From positions 280,770 to 344,769 of IMG/VR virus record IMGVR_UViG_3300024252_000004: a DNA stretch of 64,000 bases. One strand, written 5' to 3'. The position numbers and the translations under genes are program-made. This stretch comes from a virus. A model generated the notes under the pieces. The model was not told the DNA's origin. It did not search any database and saw only the letters and a program-made list of their open reading frames with translations. Shown piece by piece: positions 7,126-60,931 of the stretch; positions within the stretch are counted from its first letter, which is position 1, and every line of letters starts with the position of its first letter.

Positions 7126-7406
7126 TCCTCGTCTTTATCTTCTTTCTTTTCTTTTGGAGCTTCGCCACCAAAGAGCTTTTCCATAAGCTCAGCAAAGTCG
7201 GAGGCATCCTCTGCTTCTTCTGGCATTTCTTCGCCATGACTATGTTCACATATATCAAGCGTAGGCTCATCGGGCATAGGAGATAGTCCCAAAGCAGATG
7301 CAATTTCTGCTGGATCTACTCCTTCTAAAATCAAAATCTCTTGAGCCTCTTTTTTGAAATTAAGGCTGTAGAGGTTTCTGCTTAAACTTACAAGTTTAGT
7401 GTACAT
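7122..7406 (-). CDS. hypothetical protein with acidic Lys/Glu/Asp tail
   Basis: start taken at MYTKLVSL (AGGAGTG 7 nt upstream on minus strand); longer ORF to 7538 overlaps the RF gene start and is likely spurious. Confidence 0.4.
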   Translation of the reverse strand: MYTKLVSLSRNLYSLNFKKEAQEILILEGVDPAEIASALGLSPMPDEPTLDICEHSHGEEMPEEAEDASDFAELMEKLFGGEAPKEKKEDKDED

Positions 7407-7457
7407 AGTACTGTCACTCCTACTAAGATTAAGTATAATAGTAGGACTGGAGGTTCT

Positions 7458-8146
7458 AATGAATTCGATCATATTGGAAATTAAAGCTGCCGAAGGCGGC
7501 ACAGATGCAAAGCTCCTTGTTGATGAACAGTTGGCCATTTATAGGAGATACTGTTCTCGGAGGTCTCTTTGAGTTAGCTCTCTTAGATTCCAGAAGCGGT
7601 TTTATCAGATGCAGAGTCAGCGGCAAAAACGTCAAAAAACATTTTAGGCATGAGCCTGGAGGCCACAGATGGCAAAGGGTTCCTCCGACAGAGAGACGAG
7701 GAAGGGTTCATACTTCTACGATCACTGTCGCTGTCCTACCGGAAGTAACTGAATCTGAAGTTAAGATTAGCGAAAAAGATTTAGAATGGAAAGCCTTTAG
7801 GGGTTCTGGTCCCGGCGGTCAGCATAGAAACAAAACTGATTCTGCTGTGTCGCTTCACCATAAGCCTACTGGAATCAAGATCCGTTCTGAATCTCAAAAG
7901 AGTCAGAAGCAGAATAAGGACACCGCTCTTGCAATATTGAGAGCGAGGTTGCATTCTGAGCAGAGAGAGTCTCAGTCTTTGCGACGCAGTAATATGAGGA
8001 AGAGCCAAGTGGGCTCAGGTATGCGCGCCGACAAAATCAGGACGATCAGGTTGCAGGACGGACAAGTTACGGATCACAACACTGGAAAAAGAATCTCTGC
8101 GAAAAAATATTTGCGCGGAGACTTGGAAGGTCTATTTGAAAAGTAA
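7458..8146 (+). CDS. class I peptide chain release factor, RF1-like (PxT = PPT), lacking domain 1; needs +1 frameshift at 7570 and has an additional +1 frame break at 7499/7501
   Basis: SD GGAGG + ATG 7458; MNSIILEIKAAEGG (frame 0) / TDAKLLVDEQLAIYRRYCSRRSL (frame +1, stops at UGA 7570) / ELALLDSRSGF..GGHRWQRVPPTERRGRVHTS..SGPGGQHRNKTDSA..DKIRTIRLQDGQVTDH (frame +2) align contiguously to RF1. Confidence 0.75.
7559..7573 (+). other. prfB-type programmed +1 ribosomal frameshift site
   Basis: GGAGG-UCU-CUU-UGA-G: SD-like element 3 nt upstream of CUU UGA, same architecture and spacing as E. coli prfB AGGGGG-UAU-CUU-UGA-C. Confidence 0.7.
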
Positions 8147-8524: not shown

Positions 8525-8617
8525 TGCGGGGTCGACTAGTCTGGCCCATGTCACCAGTCTCATAAGCTGGCTCTGAGTATACCTCAATCGTTGGTTCAAA
8601 TCCAACCCCCGCACCCA
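8525..8617 (+). tRNA. tRNA-like, anticodon CAT on class-II scaffold (19-nt variable arm), CCA encoded
   Basis: acceptor TGCGGGG/CCCCGCA perfect, D stem GAC/GTC, anticodon stem CCAGT/GCTGG loop CTCATAA, variable arm hairpin TGAG-TATAC-CTCA, T arm identical to tRNA 2556. Confidence 0.5.
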
Positions 8618-9550: not shown

Positions 9551-9623
9551 AGCTGAGTAGCTCAATCGGTAGAGCAACAGGTTCATATCCTGTAGGTTGT
9601 AGGTTCAAGCCCTATCTCAGCTA
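9551..9623 (+). tRNA. tRNA-Met(CAT)
   Basis: acceptor AGCTGAG/CTCAGCT, D arm GCTC..GAGC, anticodon stem ACAGG/CCTGT loop TTCATAT, T-loop TTCAAGC. Confidence 0.65.
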
Positions 9624-9683
9624 CCGTAAAGTAGAAACATAGTTTGTGTTTCATTTAAACAATCATCAAAGGGGAGAATCATA

Positions 9684-21690: not shown

Positions 21691-21768
21691 GGGGAATTAG
21701 CTCAATTGGCCAGAGCGGCAGATTCTAGACCTGCGACAGTGTGGGTTCGAGCCCCACATTCCCTACCA
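21691..21768 (+). tRNA. candidate amber-suppressor tRNA, anticodon CTA, tRNA-Trp-like body
   Basis: acceptor GGGGAAT/ATTCCCT, D arm GCTC-AATTGGCCA-GAGC, anticodon loop TTCTAGA on stem GCAGA/CCTGC (A-C mismatch at 31-39), 6-nt variable, T arm GTGGG-TTCGAGC-CCCAC, CCA encoded. Confidence 0.5.
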
Positions 21769-22618: not shown

Positions 22619-22694
22619 GGTACCTTAGCAAAGTTGGTCTATGCGCCCGTCTGAAGAACGGGATATTTCGGTTCGATCCCGAGAGGTACCACCA
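22619..22694 (+). tRNA. tRNA, anticodon GAA (Phe-like, G37), CCA encoded
   Basis: acceptor GGTACCT/AGGTACC perfect, anticodon stem CCCGT/ACGGG loop CTGAAGA, T arm TTCGG-TTCGATC-CCGAG. Confidence 0.55.
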
Positions 22695-22748
22695 CTTACA
22701 GTAAACTTTTATAGAAAACCCACAAGGTGTTATAAAAGATTGTTGCGA

Positions 22749-22824
22749 GGCTGGGTAGCTCAGCAGGTAGAGCAGTGGATTGAAAATCCATGTGTCGTCG
22801 GTTCGATCCCGATCCTAGCCACCA
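22749..22824 (+). tRNA. tRNA-Phe(GAA), CCA encoded
   Basis: near-identical architecture to E. coli tRNA-Phe: AGCTCAG..GGTAGAGCA, anticodon loop TTGAAAA, GTGTC variable, T-loop TTCGATC. Confidence 0.75.
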
Positions 22825-22842: not shown

Positions 22843-23238
22843 ATGAGCACAAAGGCAGAAATGGAATTCACTCTTGAGATATTTCCTCTTCCAGAAGAGA
22901 TAAAGCTATTTGTCGAAGATGGACTTGTTGAGGAAATCGAGAGGTACTACGAAGTTCTTATTGACAAAGATGTAATTAGAGTGTGGTCTCTTAAGAATAC
23001 GGACTACTTCTATTTTATGTCAGGGATTCGGCCGACAAGAACCAACGGGAAAGTCGTTGTTTCAGGTGTCGTCTGTAATTGGGCTGATAGAGAAGGGGCA
23101 CTTATCACCACTAAACACATCTTTGAGGTTGTCCAAGATTTTGACATAATCAAAGTTCTCGTTTCAAGGCCGGATATTTACTTTTCGAATGAAGATATCA
23201 ACAGAGTCTCATTTGTAACCGCATTGGAGTCTAAGTAG
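22843..23238 (+). CDS. hypothetical protein
   Basis: 131-aa ORF. Confidence 0.45.
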   Translation: MSTKAEMEFTLEIFPLPEEIKLFVEDGLVEEIERYYEVLIDKDVIRVWSLKNTDYFYFMSGIRPTRTNGKVVVSGVVCNWADREGALITTKHIFEVVQDFDIIKVLVSRPDIYFSNEDINRVSFVTALESK

Positions 23239-23756
23239 TGAAATACAAAGTAAAGAAAGGTGCGATGAACTCGGGCGGCATTAGTAAACTCATAGAGTTT
23301 GCAGAAACTCTGAACTATACGCCGTGTTCAACTTGGCTCGGATATTACAAAGAAAAGGTATTCTACCTTGGCGATATGAGCAAAGAAGATGTTCCGAAAA
23401 TTCTGCACAGTCTTGCTCCTGCGATCCTCGGAAAGCTATCGGCTCTTGGAGAGCTAAGCGAAGACAATCTTTTTAATCAAATCGTGATTAAGAAGTATGC
23501 CGAAGGAGACGAAGGCAAGCCGCATTTTGATCCAAGAGATATTAAGGGGAAGGTCGTTGCAATTCACTTTGGTGACTTTGAGCTTAGTACGGTAAGGTTT
23601 GATGGCGAAGAAGTAATGGTTGACTCTGGGGATGTCATCATCCGACAGGCAACATCGGGTTACACGATGGGGCCAAAGTACAACGTAAGTGCAGTTGAGG
23701 GCGGCACAAAATATGTCCTCGAATTCCAAACAATCACTAAGGAGAAACCCTCTTGA
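23238..23756 (+). CDS. hypothetical protein
   Basis: 172-aa ORF from GTG overlapping previous stop. Confidence 0.45.
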   Translation: MKYKVKKGAMNSGGISKLIEFAETLNYTPCSTWLGYYKEKVFYLGDMSKEDVPKILHSLAPAILGKLSALGELSEDNLFNQIVIKKYAEGDEGKPHFDPRDIKGKVVAIHFGDFELSTVRFDGEEVMVDSGDVIIRQATSGYTMGPKYNVSAVEGGTKYVLEFQTITKEKPS

Positions 23757-24238
23757 AAACAAGAGTAAATTCTGATATCATAGCAAGAAGAGTTCTTCTC
23801 ATTGGAGGAGACGGTTCCAAGGTTGGCATTTTTCAGACAAGAGATGCCATAAGTAAAGCACAGGAGGCAGGTCTTGACCTGTTGCAGGTCAGCGCAGATC
23901 AGGAAGTTCCCGTGTGTAAGATTGTCGATTATGGCAAGATGCTTTATCTTCTAAAGAAGGGCAAGAAGGCTAAGGGATCAAGGGTTGTTGTGAAGGAAGT
24001 GAAGTTCGGACCTAACACTGGTGATGCTGATATTCAGGTCAGAGTTAAGGCTGCGAACAAATTCCTCTCCAAGGGTAACCACGTCAAGTTTACCGTCAGG
24101 GTGAAGGGTCGTGCAAACGCTCACAGAGACCTTGTCATCGATAAGCTTGCAGAAGTTCTTGAGAAGGTAGAGGGGAAAGTAGAGAAGGCTCCATCCTTCT
24201 CAGGCAACATATGCTCGGCGCTTGTCGTGCCGGAGTAA
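23753..24238 (+). CDS. infC: translation initiation factor IF-3 homolog, UUG start
   Basis: SD AAGGAGA then TTG 23753, no in-frame ATG before conserved NTD; LIGGDGSKVGIF..EAGLDLLQVSADQEVPVCKIVDYGK and KEVKFGPNTGDADIQVRVKAANKFL..RVKGRANAH match IF3 N and C domains. Confidence 0.8.
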   Translation: MKTRVNSDIIARRVLLIGGDGSKVGIFQTRDAISKAQEAGLDLLQVSADQEVPVCKIVDYGKMLYLLKKGKKAKGSRVVVKEVKFGPNTGDADIQVRVKAANKFLSKGNHVKFTVRVKGRANAHRDLVIDKLAEVLEKVEGKVEKAPSFSGNICSALVVPE

Positions 24239-24249
24239 ACTCATAATGT

Positions 24250-24327
24250 ACGTGCCCATGTTCCAAGGCAAGGCGACAGAGATTCCAAATCTCCGTGGGT
24301 GGGGTTCGATACCCCAGGTGCGTGCCA
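24250..24327 (+). tRNA. tRNA-Trp(CCA), CCA encoded
   Basis: acceptor ACGTGCC/GGTGCGT (G-U pairs), anticodon loop TTCCAAA, T arm TGGGG-TTCGATA-CCCCA; D arm atypical. Confidence 0.55.
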
Positions 24328-44443: not shown

Positions 44444-44846
44444 GGGGGCGTTTTGGATTCGACCGGGTAACAGATAGGAATAGTGCAAGCCGATCAAGGT
44501 AACTCAGATCGTTATAAGCGTTACAAAAAACAAACTAGTTGACGACTATTCATTCGTGTACGCAAACGCAGGCAGAGGCTTCGGCGCTCCTGTAGTAGCA
44601 TACGCCTAATTCCGATTTAGGCATGTGGACTCTGTGTTCCATATATCCAAACACAGATAAGTGGTTGAACGCACTGACATAAACATTGTTCAAAAATGGA
44701 GTAGCCCGAAAGGGAGGAGGCGTCTATCATTTGGCGTCAGGGGATAAAATGAATACTTTGCCTATTTAGAGAAATGGGATAAGCTTGTGAACGACTTGAA
44801 ATTGACGTTATGCGACACGAGGGTTCGACTCCCTCCGCCTCCACCA
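44444..44846 (+). ncRNA. ssrA: tmRNA (SsrA), standard one-piece
   Basis: 5' GGGGGCGTTTTGGATTCGACCGGG and 3' GAGGGTTCGACTCCCTCCGCCTCCACCA match tmRNA termini; acceptor GGGGGCG/CGCCTCC with G3-U70 and A73; tag frame GCA AAC GCA GGC AGA GGC TTC GGC GCT CCT GTA GTA GCA TAC GCC TAA (ANAGRGFGAPVVAYA). Confidence 0.85.
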
Positions 44847-59087: not shown

Positions 59088-60098
59088 ATGTTGTTATCCG
59101 CAGATGTTGTAGTGGGGCTCGCTTGGGGCGATGAAGCAAAAGGAAAGATCACCTCAGCCTTGGCAGCTACAGGGCAGTACGACGCCGTGGCTCGCTGGGC
59201 CGGAGGCAATAACGCAGGCCATACGGTCTACGTCAATGGCGAAAAATACAAAACACACCTTGTTCCAAGCGGCGTATTCCACGGAATGCTTTCCATCGTT
59301 GGTCCCGGCTGTGTATTGCATCCAGAAGAATTTGAAAAAGAATTGGCTTACCTCGCAGGACACGGATTCGATACCTCTCTTGTGAAGGTATCTCCGAATT
59401 GCCACATTGTTCAAGACGAGCATATTGAGTTTGACAAGCAGAACCTTGCAAAGAAGCTTGGCACAACCTCAAAAGGTATTGCACCGAGTTACGCAGCTAA
59501 GGCGGCAAGAACAGGTCTTCTTGCCAAAGACTATTACGAAGGCAGTGACATCCTATGGGACGGTCAGCTTAGCGGTGTATTATTGTGTGAAGGAGCGCAG
59601 GGGGCTTGGTTAGATATTGATCACGGGAATTATCCCTATGTGACCTCAAGCATTACACTTGCCTATGGAGCTTGCAGTATAGGCTTCGCACCACAGCTCA
59701 TTAAGAGCATCTGGGGCGCTGCCAAAATTTATGACACAAGAAGCGGAGAAGATCCTATTTTTCCTGCGTCACTACTTGATGACCCTATGCTGTCAAAGGT
59801 TGGGGAAATTGGGGCCGAATATGGTGTGACCACAGGGCGCAGAAGAAAGGTAAATTGGCTTGATGTTGATATGCTGATTAAGTCTATCAATTTGACTGGA
59901 TGCACACACGTTGTTGTTAGCAAATGTGATGTATTGGAAGAGGCCGGAGTTTACAGGATGTATTGTAGAGGGATTCAGAACGAGCTTTCTGAGTTCGAAA
60001 GCATTACCGATATGACCGGAGTGCTGGAGACTCTTCTTAGAAAGAATTGTTCCCTTCTCAAGAGAGTGATCTTTTCCTCTTCACCGGAGAATATATGA
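59088..60098 (+). CDS. purA: adenylosuccinate synthetase
   Basis: SD GGAGG + ATG 59088; VVVGLAWGDEAKGK P-loop and GGNNAGHTV motif. Confidence 0.85.
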   Translation: MLLSADVVVGLAWGDEAKGKITSALAATGQYDAVARWAGGNNAGHTVYVNGEKYKTHLVPSGVFHGMLSIVGPGCVLHPEEFEKELAYLAGHGFDTSLVKVSPNCHIVQDEHIEFDKQNLAKKLGTTSKGIAPSYAAKAARTGLLAKDYYEGSDILWDGQLSGVLLCEGAQGAWLDIDHGNYPYVTSSITLAYGACSIGFAPQLIKSIWGAAKIYDTRSGEDPIFPASLLDDPMLSKVGEIGAEYGVTTGRRRKVNWLDVDMLIKSINLTGCTHVVVSKCDVLEEAGVYRMYCRGIQNELSEFESITDMTGVLETLLRKNCSLLKRVIFSSSPENI

Positions 60099-60931
60099 GT
60101 AAAAGAAGTATGTTGATATATCATGCCAATTGCCCTGACGGCTTTGGCGCGGCATATGCATTTTGGAAAAAATACGGATATGGTATTGATTACTGTGCAG
60201 TAAAGCATGGTGATCCGATACCGGATGATATTGACGACAGAGATATCTGGATAGTAGATTTCTGTTTTAAGTTTCCAGAAATGGATGAAGTGATTGAAAG
60301 AGCTAAGAGCGTGGTCGTTATCGATCACCACATTACGGCTATGGAATCGATGGAGGGCGTTACTCGTCCGAATCTTGAAACCATATTTAAAATGGATAAC
60401 TCAGGCGCGGTGTTGGCATGGAAATACCTTTTCCCTGACGAAGACGTTCCAAAGATTCTTCAGTACATTGAAGATAGAGATATTCATAAGTGGGAGCTAG
60501 AGGGTGCCGAAGCACTTTTGGCTAATCTTGATTCTAATGAAAAGAATCTTGAAATCTGGGATGATTTTGCTCAAGACATTGAGACCTCAAGAGGTTTGAT
60601 GAATCAGATTAAGGGCGGAAGAATTCTTCTTGATTACAAAAAGGAGATCAGTGATTCCATTAAGAGAGGCATGTATTACATGACTATCCGAGGAATTGAG
60701 TTCCCTGTCATTAACACCGCAGTGATATTCCGTGGAGACATCCTTTCGGAGATTGCTGATAGTACAGATTTTGGCGTAGCGGCTGCTTATAATTTTGACG
60801 GAAAGCATTATGTCTTCTCGTTAAGGTCGAGAGGCGAAGTCGATGTTGCTAAGATTGCGGAATCGTTCCCCGGTGGTGGCGGGCACAAAGGAGCCGCAGG
60901 GTTTTCGGTCCTTACTATGGAGGACCTTTAG
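60095..60931 (+). CDS. DHH/DHHA1 phosphoesterase (NrnA-like oligoribonuclease/pAp phosphatase family)
   Basis: ATG 60095 overlaps purA stop (ATGA); VVIDHH DHH motif and GGGGHKGAAG DHHA1 motif. Confidence 0.7.
   Translation: MSKRSMLIYHANCPDGFGAAYAFWKKYGYGIDYCAVKHGDPIPDDIDDRDIWIVDFCFKFPEMDEVIERAKSVVVIDHHITAMESMEGVTRPNLETIFKMDNSGAVLAWKYLFPDEDVPKILQYIEDRDIHKWELEGAEALLANLDSNEKNLEIWDDFAQDIETSRGLMNQIKGGRILLDYKKEISDSIKRGMYYMTIRGIEFPVINTAVIFRGDILSEIADSTDFGVAAAYNFDGKHYVFSLRSRGEVDVAKIAESFPGGGGHKGAAGFSVLTMEDL

Follow-up and report, generated by a model that had tools for sequence, protein, structure and literature searches.

In bacteria, translation initiation factor 3 (IF3) rejects a class of start codons comprising AUU, AUC, AUA, CUG and similar triplets, and this rejection is the basis of the autoregulation of its own gene, infC. 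A viral IF3 gene that likewise starts with a codon other than AUG, in this case UUG, is present in a 64,000-nucleotide stretch of DNA (positions 280,770 to 344,769 of the IMG/VR virus record IMGVR_UViG_3300024252_000004), which is referred to here as the window and whose own numbering is used throughout. It has been demonstrated that UUG is canonical for Escherichia coli IF3, together with AUG and GUG (PMC5499595; likewise PMC9723500), that a 10-fold excess of IF3 barely affects an mRNA starting with UUG (PMC5499595), and that expression of a UUG reporter lies 6-8 times below that of its AUG counterpart in E. coli (PMC3592434). It has also been shown that overexpressed IF3 markedly reduces re-initiation in this bacterium, an effect that the authors tie to the absence of a Shine-Dalgarno (SD) sequence, and that leaderless translation and re-initiation are inhibited and growth of M13 is blocked under IF3 excess (PMC2268962), while in reporters with an SD present re-initiation and de novo initiation are about equal contributors (PMC3592434). 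IF3 genes have already been documented in metagenomic huge phages (Al-Shayeb et al. 2020, PMC7162821), and they are also found in the cultured jumbo phages GAP32, CBB, XbC2, Atu_ph07, Phosso and Vibrio phage 2.275.O. A literature search found neither a discussion of start-codon use or coupling of phage IF3 nor a report of an enrichment of UUG and GUG together with a near-absent AUU class in these genes. To our knowledge, the control of IF3 dose by phages has not previously been examined.

The IF3 gene of the window starts with a UUG that overlaps the UGA stop of the preceding cistron, and the same TTG is found in every relative detected, two points absent from the initial annotation of this DNA. 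From the anatomy of this junction, its conservation and its contrast with infC, we infer that it would act as a low-output, translationally coupled and IF3-insensitive initiation region, a reading to which we give somewhat better than an even chance. While phage IF3 and the use of UUG as a canonical start are known, what is new is the conservation of the UUGA junction, the pairing of IF3 with an oxygenase and the way in which phage and bacterial IF3 genes differ in their starts.

The IF3 gene and its start codon

The gene (23753..24238, plus strand, with a TAA stop at 24236-24238) encodes a product of 161 amino acids that is a full-length, two-domain IF3 of the bacterial type, in agreement with what had been proposed for it initially. 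Pfam IF3_N (PF05198) covers residues 5-73 with 80.1 bits and Pfam IF3_C (PF00707) residues 78-160 with 72.9 bits, both above their gathering scores of 26.9 and 34.8, respectively. The product also matches the phage IF3 family PHROG 9787 (phrog_9787, 'translation initiation factor') and aligns with E. coli IF3 (PDB 8jsg) with an expect value (E) of 7e-31, as well as with Thermus IF3 structures, and it is predicted to bind the 30S subunit and to play a role in initiation. The bacterial IF3s nearest to it are only 37-46% identical and belong to mixed phyla, and thus do not point to a host.

An in-frame TAA (23738-23740, plus strand) located four codons 5' of the start shuts off any upstream start, and the TTG at 23753-23755 is the sole ATG, GTG or TTG between this stop and the conserved Arg-Val-Asn (RVN) motif, the following in-frame ATG being codon 63 (23939), within the N domain. 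The SD sequence AAGGAGA (23739..23745, plus strand) lies 7 nucleotides (nt) 5' of the UUG and inside the last codons of the upstream cistron (Lys-Glu, AAG GAG). The earlier designation of UUG 23753 as the only start, 7 nt after AAGGAGA, is thus upheld by the in-frame TAA and by the lack of any other ATG, GTG or TTG.

Conservation of the UUG start

Conservation was assessed in ten lineages, namely the window, which served as the reference for IF3 identity, and nine relatives; seven of these share 58-70% IF3 identity with it (L001, L007, L009, L011, L012, L139 and L143) and form with it the eight closest lineages, while the two others share about 40% (L137 and L140). In all ten the IF3 gene starts at the homologous position with a TTG overlapping a TGA stop, the 4-nt UUGA overlap of the window (23753-23756; UGA at 23754..23756, plus strand) being present in each of the nine relatives. 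TTG alone is unremarkable, as it starts about 10% of the window open reading frames (ORFs) and 39 of 331 ORFs of related phage loci according to a crude caller; on sequence grounds, it is the conservation of the UUG, and not the codon itself, that goes beyond chance.

Synonymous sites are saturated in this comparison, with the same codon being used in only 8 of 68 columns of identical amino acids (six lineages), three of these eight falling in codons 1-7. Ahead of its stop, the upstream gene ends in TCT (Ser) or GTT (Val), whose final T is at once the first base of the TTG and a four-fold degenerate position, so that ATG or GTG could be reached silently as far as the upstream gene is concerned; neither of them occurs at the IF3 start in any of the ten lineages. 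As an internal control, the upstream cistron, described below as an oxygenase, begins with ATG in three lineages, with TTG in four and with GTG in a single one, the window, and the remaining neighbour genes of the IF3 locus use ATG in most or almost all cases. The sequence comparison therefore supports the view that the non-AUG start of IF3 is a selected feature, since it is invariant over ten lineages while the start of its neighbour drifts. A scan of Joint Genome Institute (JGI) metagenomes gained no oxygenase-IF3 lineage beyond L009, and no close relatives were found in IMG/VR with either protein patterns or a DNA pattern of the junction.

Start codons of bacterial infC and phage IF3 genes

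In 80 bacterial infC loci (L057-L136), in which the codon with the best SD match was taken as the candidate start, this codon is ATA in 27, ATT in 25, ATC in 11, ATG in six (plus two without SD), TTG in two and CTG in two cases, so that the AUU/AUA/AUC class accounts for 63 loci (~79%) and UUG for only two. Phage IF3 genes (phage genes of loci L013-L056) were assembled from IMG/VR, cultured jumbo phages and the window clade, host-like sequences were removed and the remainder was grouped at 50% identity, resulting in 22 clusters: 11 with ATG, seven with TTG, one with GTG, one with ATA and two mixed. UUG and GUG starts are enriched among them (for TTG, 7/22 clusters versus 39/331 background ORFs, p=0.011), while AUU-class starts are confined to a single cluster, compared with 63 of the 80 bacterial loci (p=1.6e-10). 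This contrast suggests that phages, like bacteria, may avoid AUG for IF3 but by a different solution, that is, a weak canonical codon. Thus, the initial idea that the non-AUG start is meaningful gains from its invariance in ten lineages and its enrichment in phages, although the accompanying idea that it mirrors the infC feedback does not, as UUG is accepted by IF3.

Two phage genes are the sole candidates for bacterial-style non-canonical starts in this set. In L023 (IMG/VR, 618 kb; start near 1956) no ATG, GTG or TTG precedes the conserved domain and only a CTG with AGGAG 5' of it is available, and in L034 (168 kb; near 1977-1983) the region before the conserved domain likewise lacks ATG, GTG and TTG and offers only ATA and ATT. 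Predicted pairing of the start codon tends to be higher at non-AUG than at AUG phage IF3 starts, an uncontrolled observation that is not used as support here.

It has been reported that Arg25 of E. coli IF3 contacts the elbow of the initiator tRNA and that an R25A variant fails to restore start-codon fidelity (PMC9723500). The residues making elbow contacts and supporting fidelity in E. coli (R25, Q33 and R66) correspond to Leu15 (codon at 23795-23797), Lys23 and Lys56 in the window IF3, which therefore does not retain this set, and an Arg equivalent to R25 is present in 74 of 80 bacterial IF3s, in 23 of 40 other phage IF3s and in none of the ten members of the window clade. The replacement of Arg25 by Leu15 is a hint that the phage IF3 might alter start-site selection, as had been suggested initially; across the phage IF3s, however, the absence of Arg25 and the use of a non-AUG start were not found to be linked.

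The stop-start junction

A same-strand stop/start overlap of the NUGA type, characteristic of translationally coupled cistrons, is present in all ten lineages, as is an SD-like GGAG/GAGG core. In the window, a 6-bp hairpin (CUCUUG-AAAA-CAAGAG; 23750..23765, plus strand) is predicted by both RNAalifold and single-sequence folding, with the UUG located in its 5' arm and paired with IF3 codons 3-5. In six lineages its predicted free energy ranges from -5.4 to -6.5 kcal/mol and the pairing probability of the start codon from 0.94 to 0.99. All 48 stem cells are standard pairs in the eight closest lineages, where four substitutions, each from a Watson-Crick to a G.U pair, preserve pairing, and a one-codon insertion accounts for loop lengths of between 4 and 7 nt across lineages; in L140 a different stem is predicted, again with the UUG inside it. 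With its SD within the upstream coding sequence and its start masked by this putative hairpin, the IF3 initiation region has the modelled organization of a coupled one. An Rfam search of the junction revealed no known RNA family. A promoter-like match (TTGAAA-17-TATCAT) inside the 5' end of IF3 is not kept by the relatives, and the promoter and terminator scan was uninformative.

The oxygenase tail encoded by this region (23741-23756) has a predicted local distance difference test (pLDDT) score of 59 for its last residues, and in seven of the eight closest lineages the penultimate oxygenase codon has C as its third base despite a varying amino acid. This tail looks as if it were shaped more by the needs of IF3 initiation than by those of the oxygenase protein.

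The upstream oxygenase cistron

The cistron that ends at the junction (23238..23756, plus strand) starts with GTG and encodes 172 amino acids. Although the window copy matched neither Pfam nor PHROG and a sequence-profile search of the PDB yielded marginal matches only, a full-library HMMER search retrieved 60 relatives, some of which match Pfam 2OG-FeII_Oxy_2 and _3. An AlphaFold2 model based on a 50-sequence alignment reached a pLDDT of 94.9 (a 2-sequence alignment gave 47.8, which was unusable), and its top Foldseek matches were the PBCV-1 prolyl hydroxylase, ALKBH8, ALKBH5 and AlkB, with a probability of 1.0 and a template modelling (TM) score of about 0.7. The model thus assigns the product to the double-stranded beta-helix fold of the 2-oxoglutarate (2OG)-Fe(II) oxygenase superfamily. 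The HxD...H iron triad is incomplete in the window copy, in which H96 and D98 are present and the distal His is replaced by Tyr148; at this distal position, 41 of 50 family sequences have His and six of 50 have Tyr. The N-terminus of the cistron is conserved as V/L-K-Y.

The oxygenase-IF3 pair with its 4-nt overlap is kept in the ten lineages, down to an oxygenase identity of 31-36%, while in L142, which carries a more distant oxygenase homologue, the next gene is unrelated and starts with ATG. The oxygenase alignments were too divergent to be used as scan queries.

Putative mechanism and alternative explanations

IF3 is the last cistron of a conserved oxygenase-IF3 module in a marine clade resembling huge phages, and it may be proposed that the UUG, the strong SD, the hairpin and the UUGA overlap together keep IF3 output low and make it depend on how much the upstream cistron is translated. 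The hairpin would be opened by a ribosome that reaches the end of the oxygenase gene, and this ribosome would then either re-initiate or free the site for a new 30S subunit; the yield would be limited by the weak UUG and the local structure, yet without repression by host or phage IF3, because UUG is canonical for this factor. A start other than AUU would be sensible for a phage, since host IF3 would throttle an AUU start from the outset, and a weak canonical codon in a coupled junction would, if this is true, escape such repression.

Several points weigh against this interpretation. Two-sided covariation was not detected in the hairpin among the eight lineages, its 3' arm also codes for the conserved Arg-Val, and chance alone would yield about 0.6 hairpins of this sort per 107 gene starts, compared with one observed, that of IF3. 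If selection acts on the hairpin, the UUG could be locked in passively, because its initial U is paired to the A that opens the Arg codon AGA, and compensation for a U-to-A change would convert this codon to UGA. Furthermore, with a strong and well-spaced SD, independent initiation could dominate and coupling could be minor. In L137, which lacks the hairpin, an in-frame ATG six codons 3' of the TTG is possibly the true start. Lastly, the start-codon survey relied on a heuristic start caller and a modest number of clusters.

The UUGA overlap, present in 10/10 lineages, would also suit a feedback that needs no codon discrimination, in which ribosomes terminating at UGA re-initiate at UUG and are destabilized by excess IF3. 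Such a mechanism, which we consider unlikely even though it ranks first among the alternatives, finds a precedent in the lowered re-initiation upon IF3 overexpression in E. coli (PMC2268962), but the published inhibition was attributed to re-initiation without SD, whereas the SD is strong here, and with an SD de novo initiation roughly equals re-initiation in reporters (PMC3592434). It is next, and with somewhat more doubt, conceivable that the UUG has no regulatory meaning and is an ordinary minority start kept by inheritance or by overlapping constraints (the stop, the SD and the Arg-Val codons). The share of TTG among window ORFs, the accumulation of constraints in this short region and the chance expectation for hairpins given above are all consistent with this explanation; on the other hand, silent changes to ATG or GTG are absent from all ten lineages at saturated synonymous sites, the start of the adjacent gene varies, and unrelated phage IF3 clusters, too, show an excess of TTG. 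Self-repression of the infC type, whereby the UUG would expose the IF3 mRNA to start-codon discrimination by IF3, had been put forward initially as a bacterial loop that was retained or converged on. A non-AUG start that is conserved in the clade and enriched in phage IF3 does parallel bacterial infC, in which non-AUG starts are near-universal, and what is known of IF3 discrimination comes mainly from E. coli, which need not represent the host. However, UUG is one of the three codons canonical for IF3, bacteria use the AUU/AUA/AUC class at 63 of 80 loci and UUG at two, and the same class is limited to one of 22 phage clusters, and the idea of a retained or convergent loop is hence not supported and quite unlikely, behind the two explanations just discussed. 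A classical feedback loop is not expected because IF3 accepts UUG and because its excess barely affects a UUG mRNA.

A farther-reaching scenario, which we regard as improbable, is that phage IF3 produced from a codon unpoliced by IF3 would enlarge the IF3 pool and shut off the AUU-initiated infC of the host via the host's own feedback; host IF3 would then be replaced by a variant without the Arg25 contact and start-site use would be changed, while the co-translated oxygenase might modify tRNA, rRNA, a ribosomal protein or IF3. Highly improbable in our opinion is a mis-assigned start, with IF3 initiating from a near-cognate codon further 3' or being produced as an oxygenase fusion by frameshifting. 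ATC and ATA codons are available at residues 9-10, but a start there loses the conserved RVN and IF3_N begins at residue 5, and the spacing of the SD fits the UUG. The oxygenase-IF3 frameshift fusion was rejected on account of the in-frame TAA four codons 5' of the start and of a junction that is non-conserved and non-slippery.

If the interpretation as a coupled, IF3-insensitive junction is confirmed, it would provide a testable rule for the expression of viral translation factors against host homeostatic circuits, it would make the oxygenase-IF3 pair a candidate for translation takeover, and it would warn annotators that a "non-AUG start at infC" is not equal to "IF3 autoregulation".

Genomic setting

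The oxygenase and IF3 genes are the second and third members of a three-gene run whose first ORF (22861..23238, plus strand, ATG at 22861) encodes 125 amino acids without Pfam match, and the TAG stop of this ORF and the oxygenase GTG have one base in common. Two tRNA-Phe genes (22619..22824, plus strand; found by both ARAGORN and the Rfam tRNA model) lie directly 5' of the run. A tRNA with the anticodon CUA, of the amber suppressor type and labelled 'Pyl' by ARAGORN, is located at 21691-21768 and makes read-through or recoding of TAG conceivable; the ORF just before the oxygenase ends in TAG (23236-23238). Downstream of IF3, a tRNA-Trp gene predicted by ARAGORN (24250..24327, plus strand) starts 12 nt past the IF3 stop and is accompanied by an ORF without Pfam match, and the thrS-infC-rpmI-rplT context is absent. 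This tRNA-Trp has no match to the Rfam tRNA model at E<=1 and may be atypical.

The whole window contains 31 tRNA genes and one transfer-messenger RNA (tmRNA) gene, all on the plus strand according to ARAGORN, amid many short ORFs without known families. Recognizable genes include those for a chaperonin, an RNA ligase, an S49 peptidase, an SPFH protein, a GMP-reductase/IMPDH-like protein, an adenylosuccinate-synthetase-like protein and an RF1-like release factor, while genes for a capsid, portal or terminase protein were not seen within the 64 kb. Marine JGI contigs, the longest of 395 kb, carry an IF3 with 99% identity, and a contig of 406 kb carries one with 70% identity. The PHROG matches, the wealth of tRNA genes and the size of these contigs give the element the look of a huge phage; set against this are the lack of virion genes in the window and of close relatives in IMG/VR, and a phage is taken as likely.

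Further features of the window were noted. The RF1-like release factor (7399-8146), recognized by its PPT and GGQ motifs, is split over the overlapping frames 7399-7572 and 7505-8146 and seems to have no N-terminal domain, which could reflect a frameshift, a pseudogene or a sequencing error; L140 and L141 also carry a release-factor gene in the vicinity of the oxygenase-IF3 pair. The adenylosuccinate-synthetase-like gene (59088-60931) apparently consists of two overlapping ORFs, 59088-60098 and 60095-60931. The tmRNA gene (44444-44846), on the same strand as everything else, has the predicted tag peptide DDYSFVYANAGRGFGAPVVAYA. With regard to tRNA-Met(CAU), a 93-nt gene at 8525-8617 has the acceptor stem GCGGGG...CCCCGCA and the anticodon loop CUCAUAA and is presumably initiator-like when set against E. 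coli tRNA-fMet; three G-C pairs are missing from its anticodon stem, however, and it contains a long insertion. The other tRNA-Met (9551-9625) seems to be of the elongator or Ile2 type.

Comparison with known systems

Among phages, the window IF3 resembles that of jumbo and huge phages, being a two-domain protein encoded on what is probably a very large genome rich in tRNA and translation genes, and non-AUG starts also occur in the IF3 genes of known phages, with GTG in Atu_ph07 and Phosso and TTG in Vibrio phage 2.275.O. It differs from these in sharing only 33-44% identity with them and in having an oxygenase as neighbour, whereas the known phage IF3 genes are adjacent to ClpS or ClpX. Bacterial infC, as organized in the E. 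coli thrS-infC-rpmI-rplT cluster, also avoids AUG and is also preceded by an SD, but its start belongs to the AUU class that IF3 rejects, while the UUG of the window lies outside that class and is accepted; by analogy with E. coli, repression of the window gene by IF3 is therefore not expected. In both systems the IF3 start adjoins the stop of the preceding gene, with E. coli infC beginning 3 nt past the thrS stop (PMC3592434) and the window IF3 overlapping the gene before it by 4 nt. The neighbours of the window IF3 are a gene of the 2OG-oxygenase fold and tRNA genes instead of thrS and rpmI-rplT. The junction also comes close to known coupling via overlapping stop and start codons (overlaps of the AUGA type, M13 gene V-VII, termination-reinitiation), with which it shares a 4-nt overlap, an SD in the upstream cistron and a start predicted to be structured (PMC6728339, PMC2268962), but the overlap here is UUGA, its U is invariant in the clade, and its dependence on upstream translation is a prediction. 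A conserved UUG in a dosage-sensitive gene also has a counterpart in gammaproteobacterial cyaA, in which the start codon limits expression and UUG, GUG and AUG give a ratio of 1:2:6 (PMC5499595); the window IF3 differs from cyaA in being another gene, in a phage context, with its UUG joined to a stop-start overlap and a predicted hairpin.

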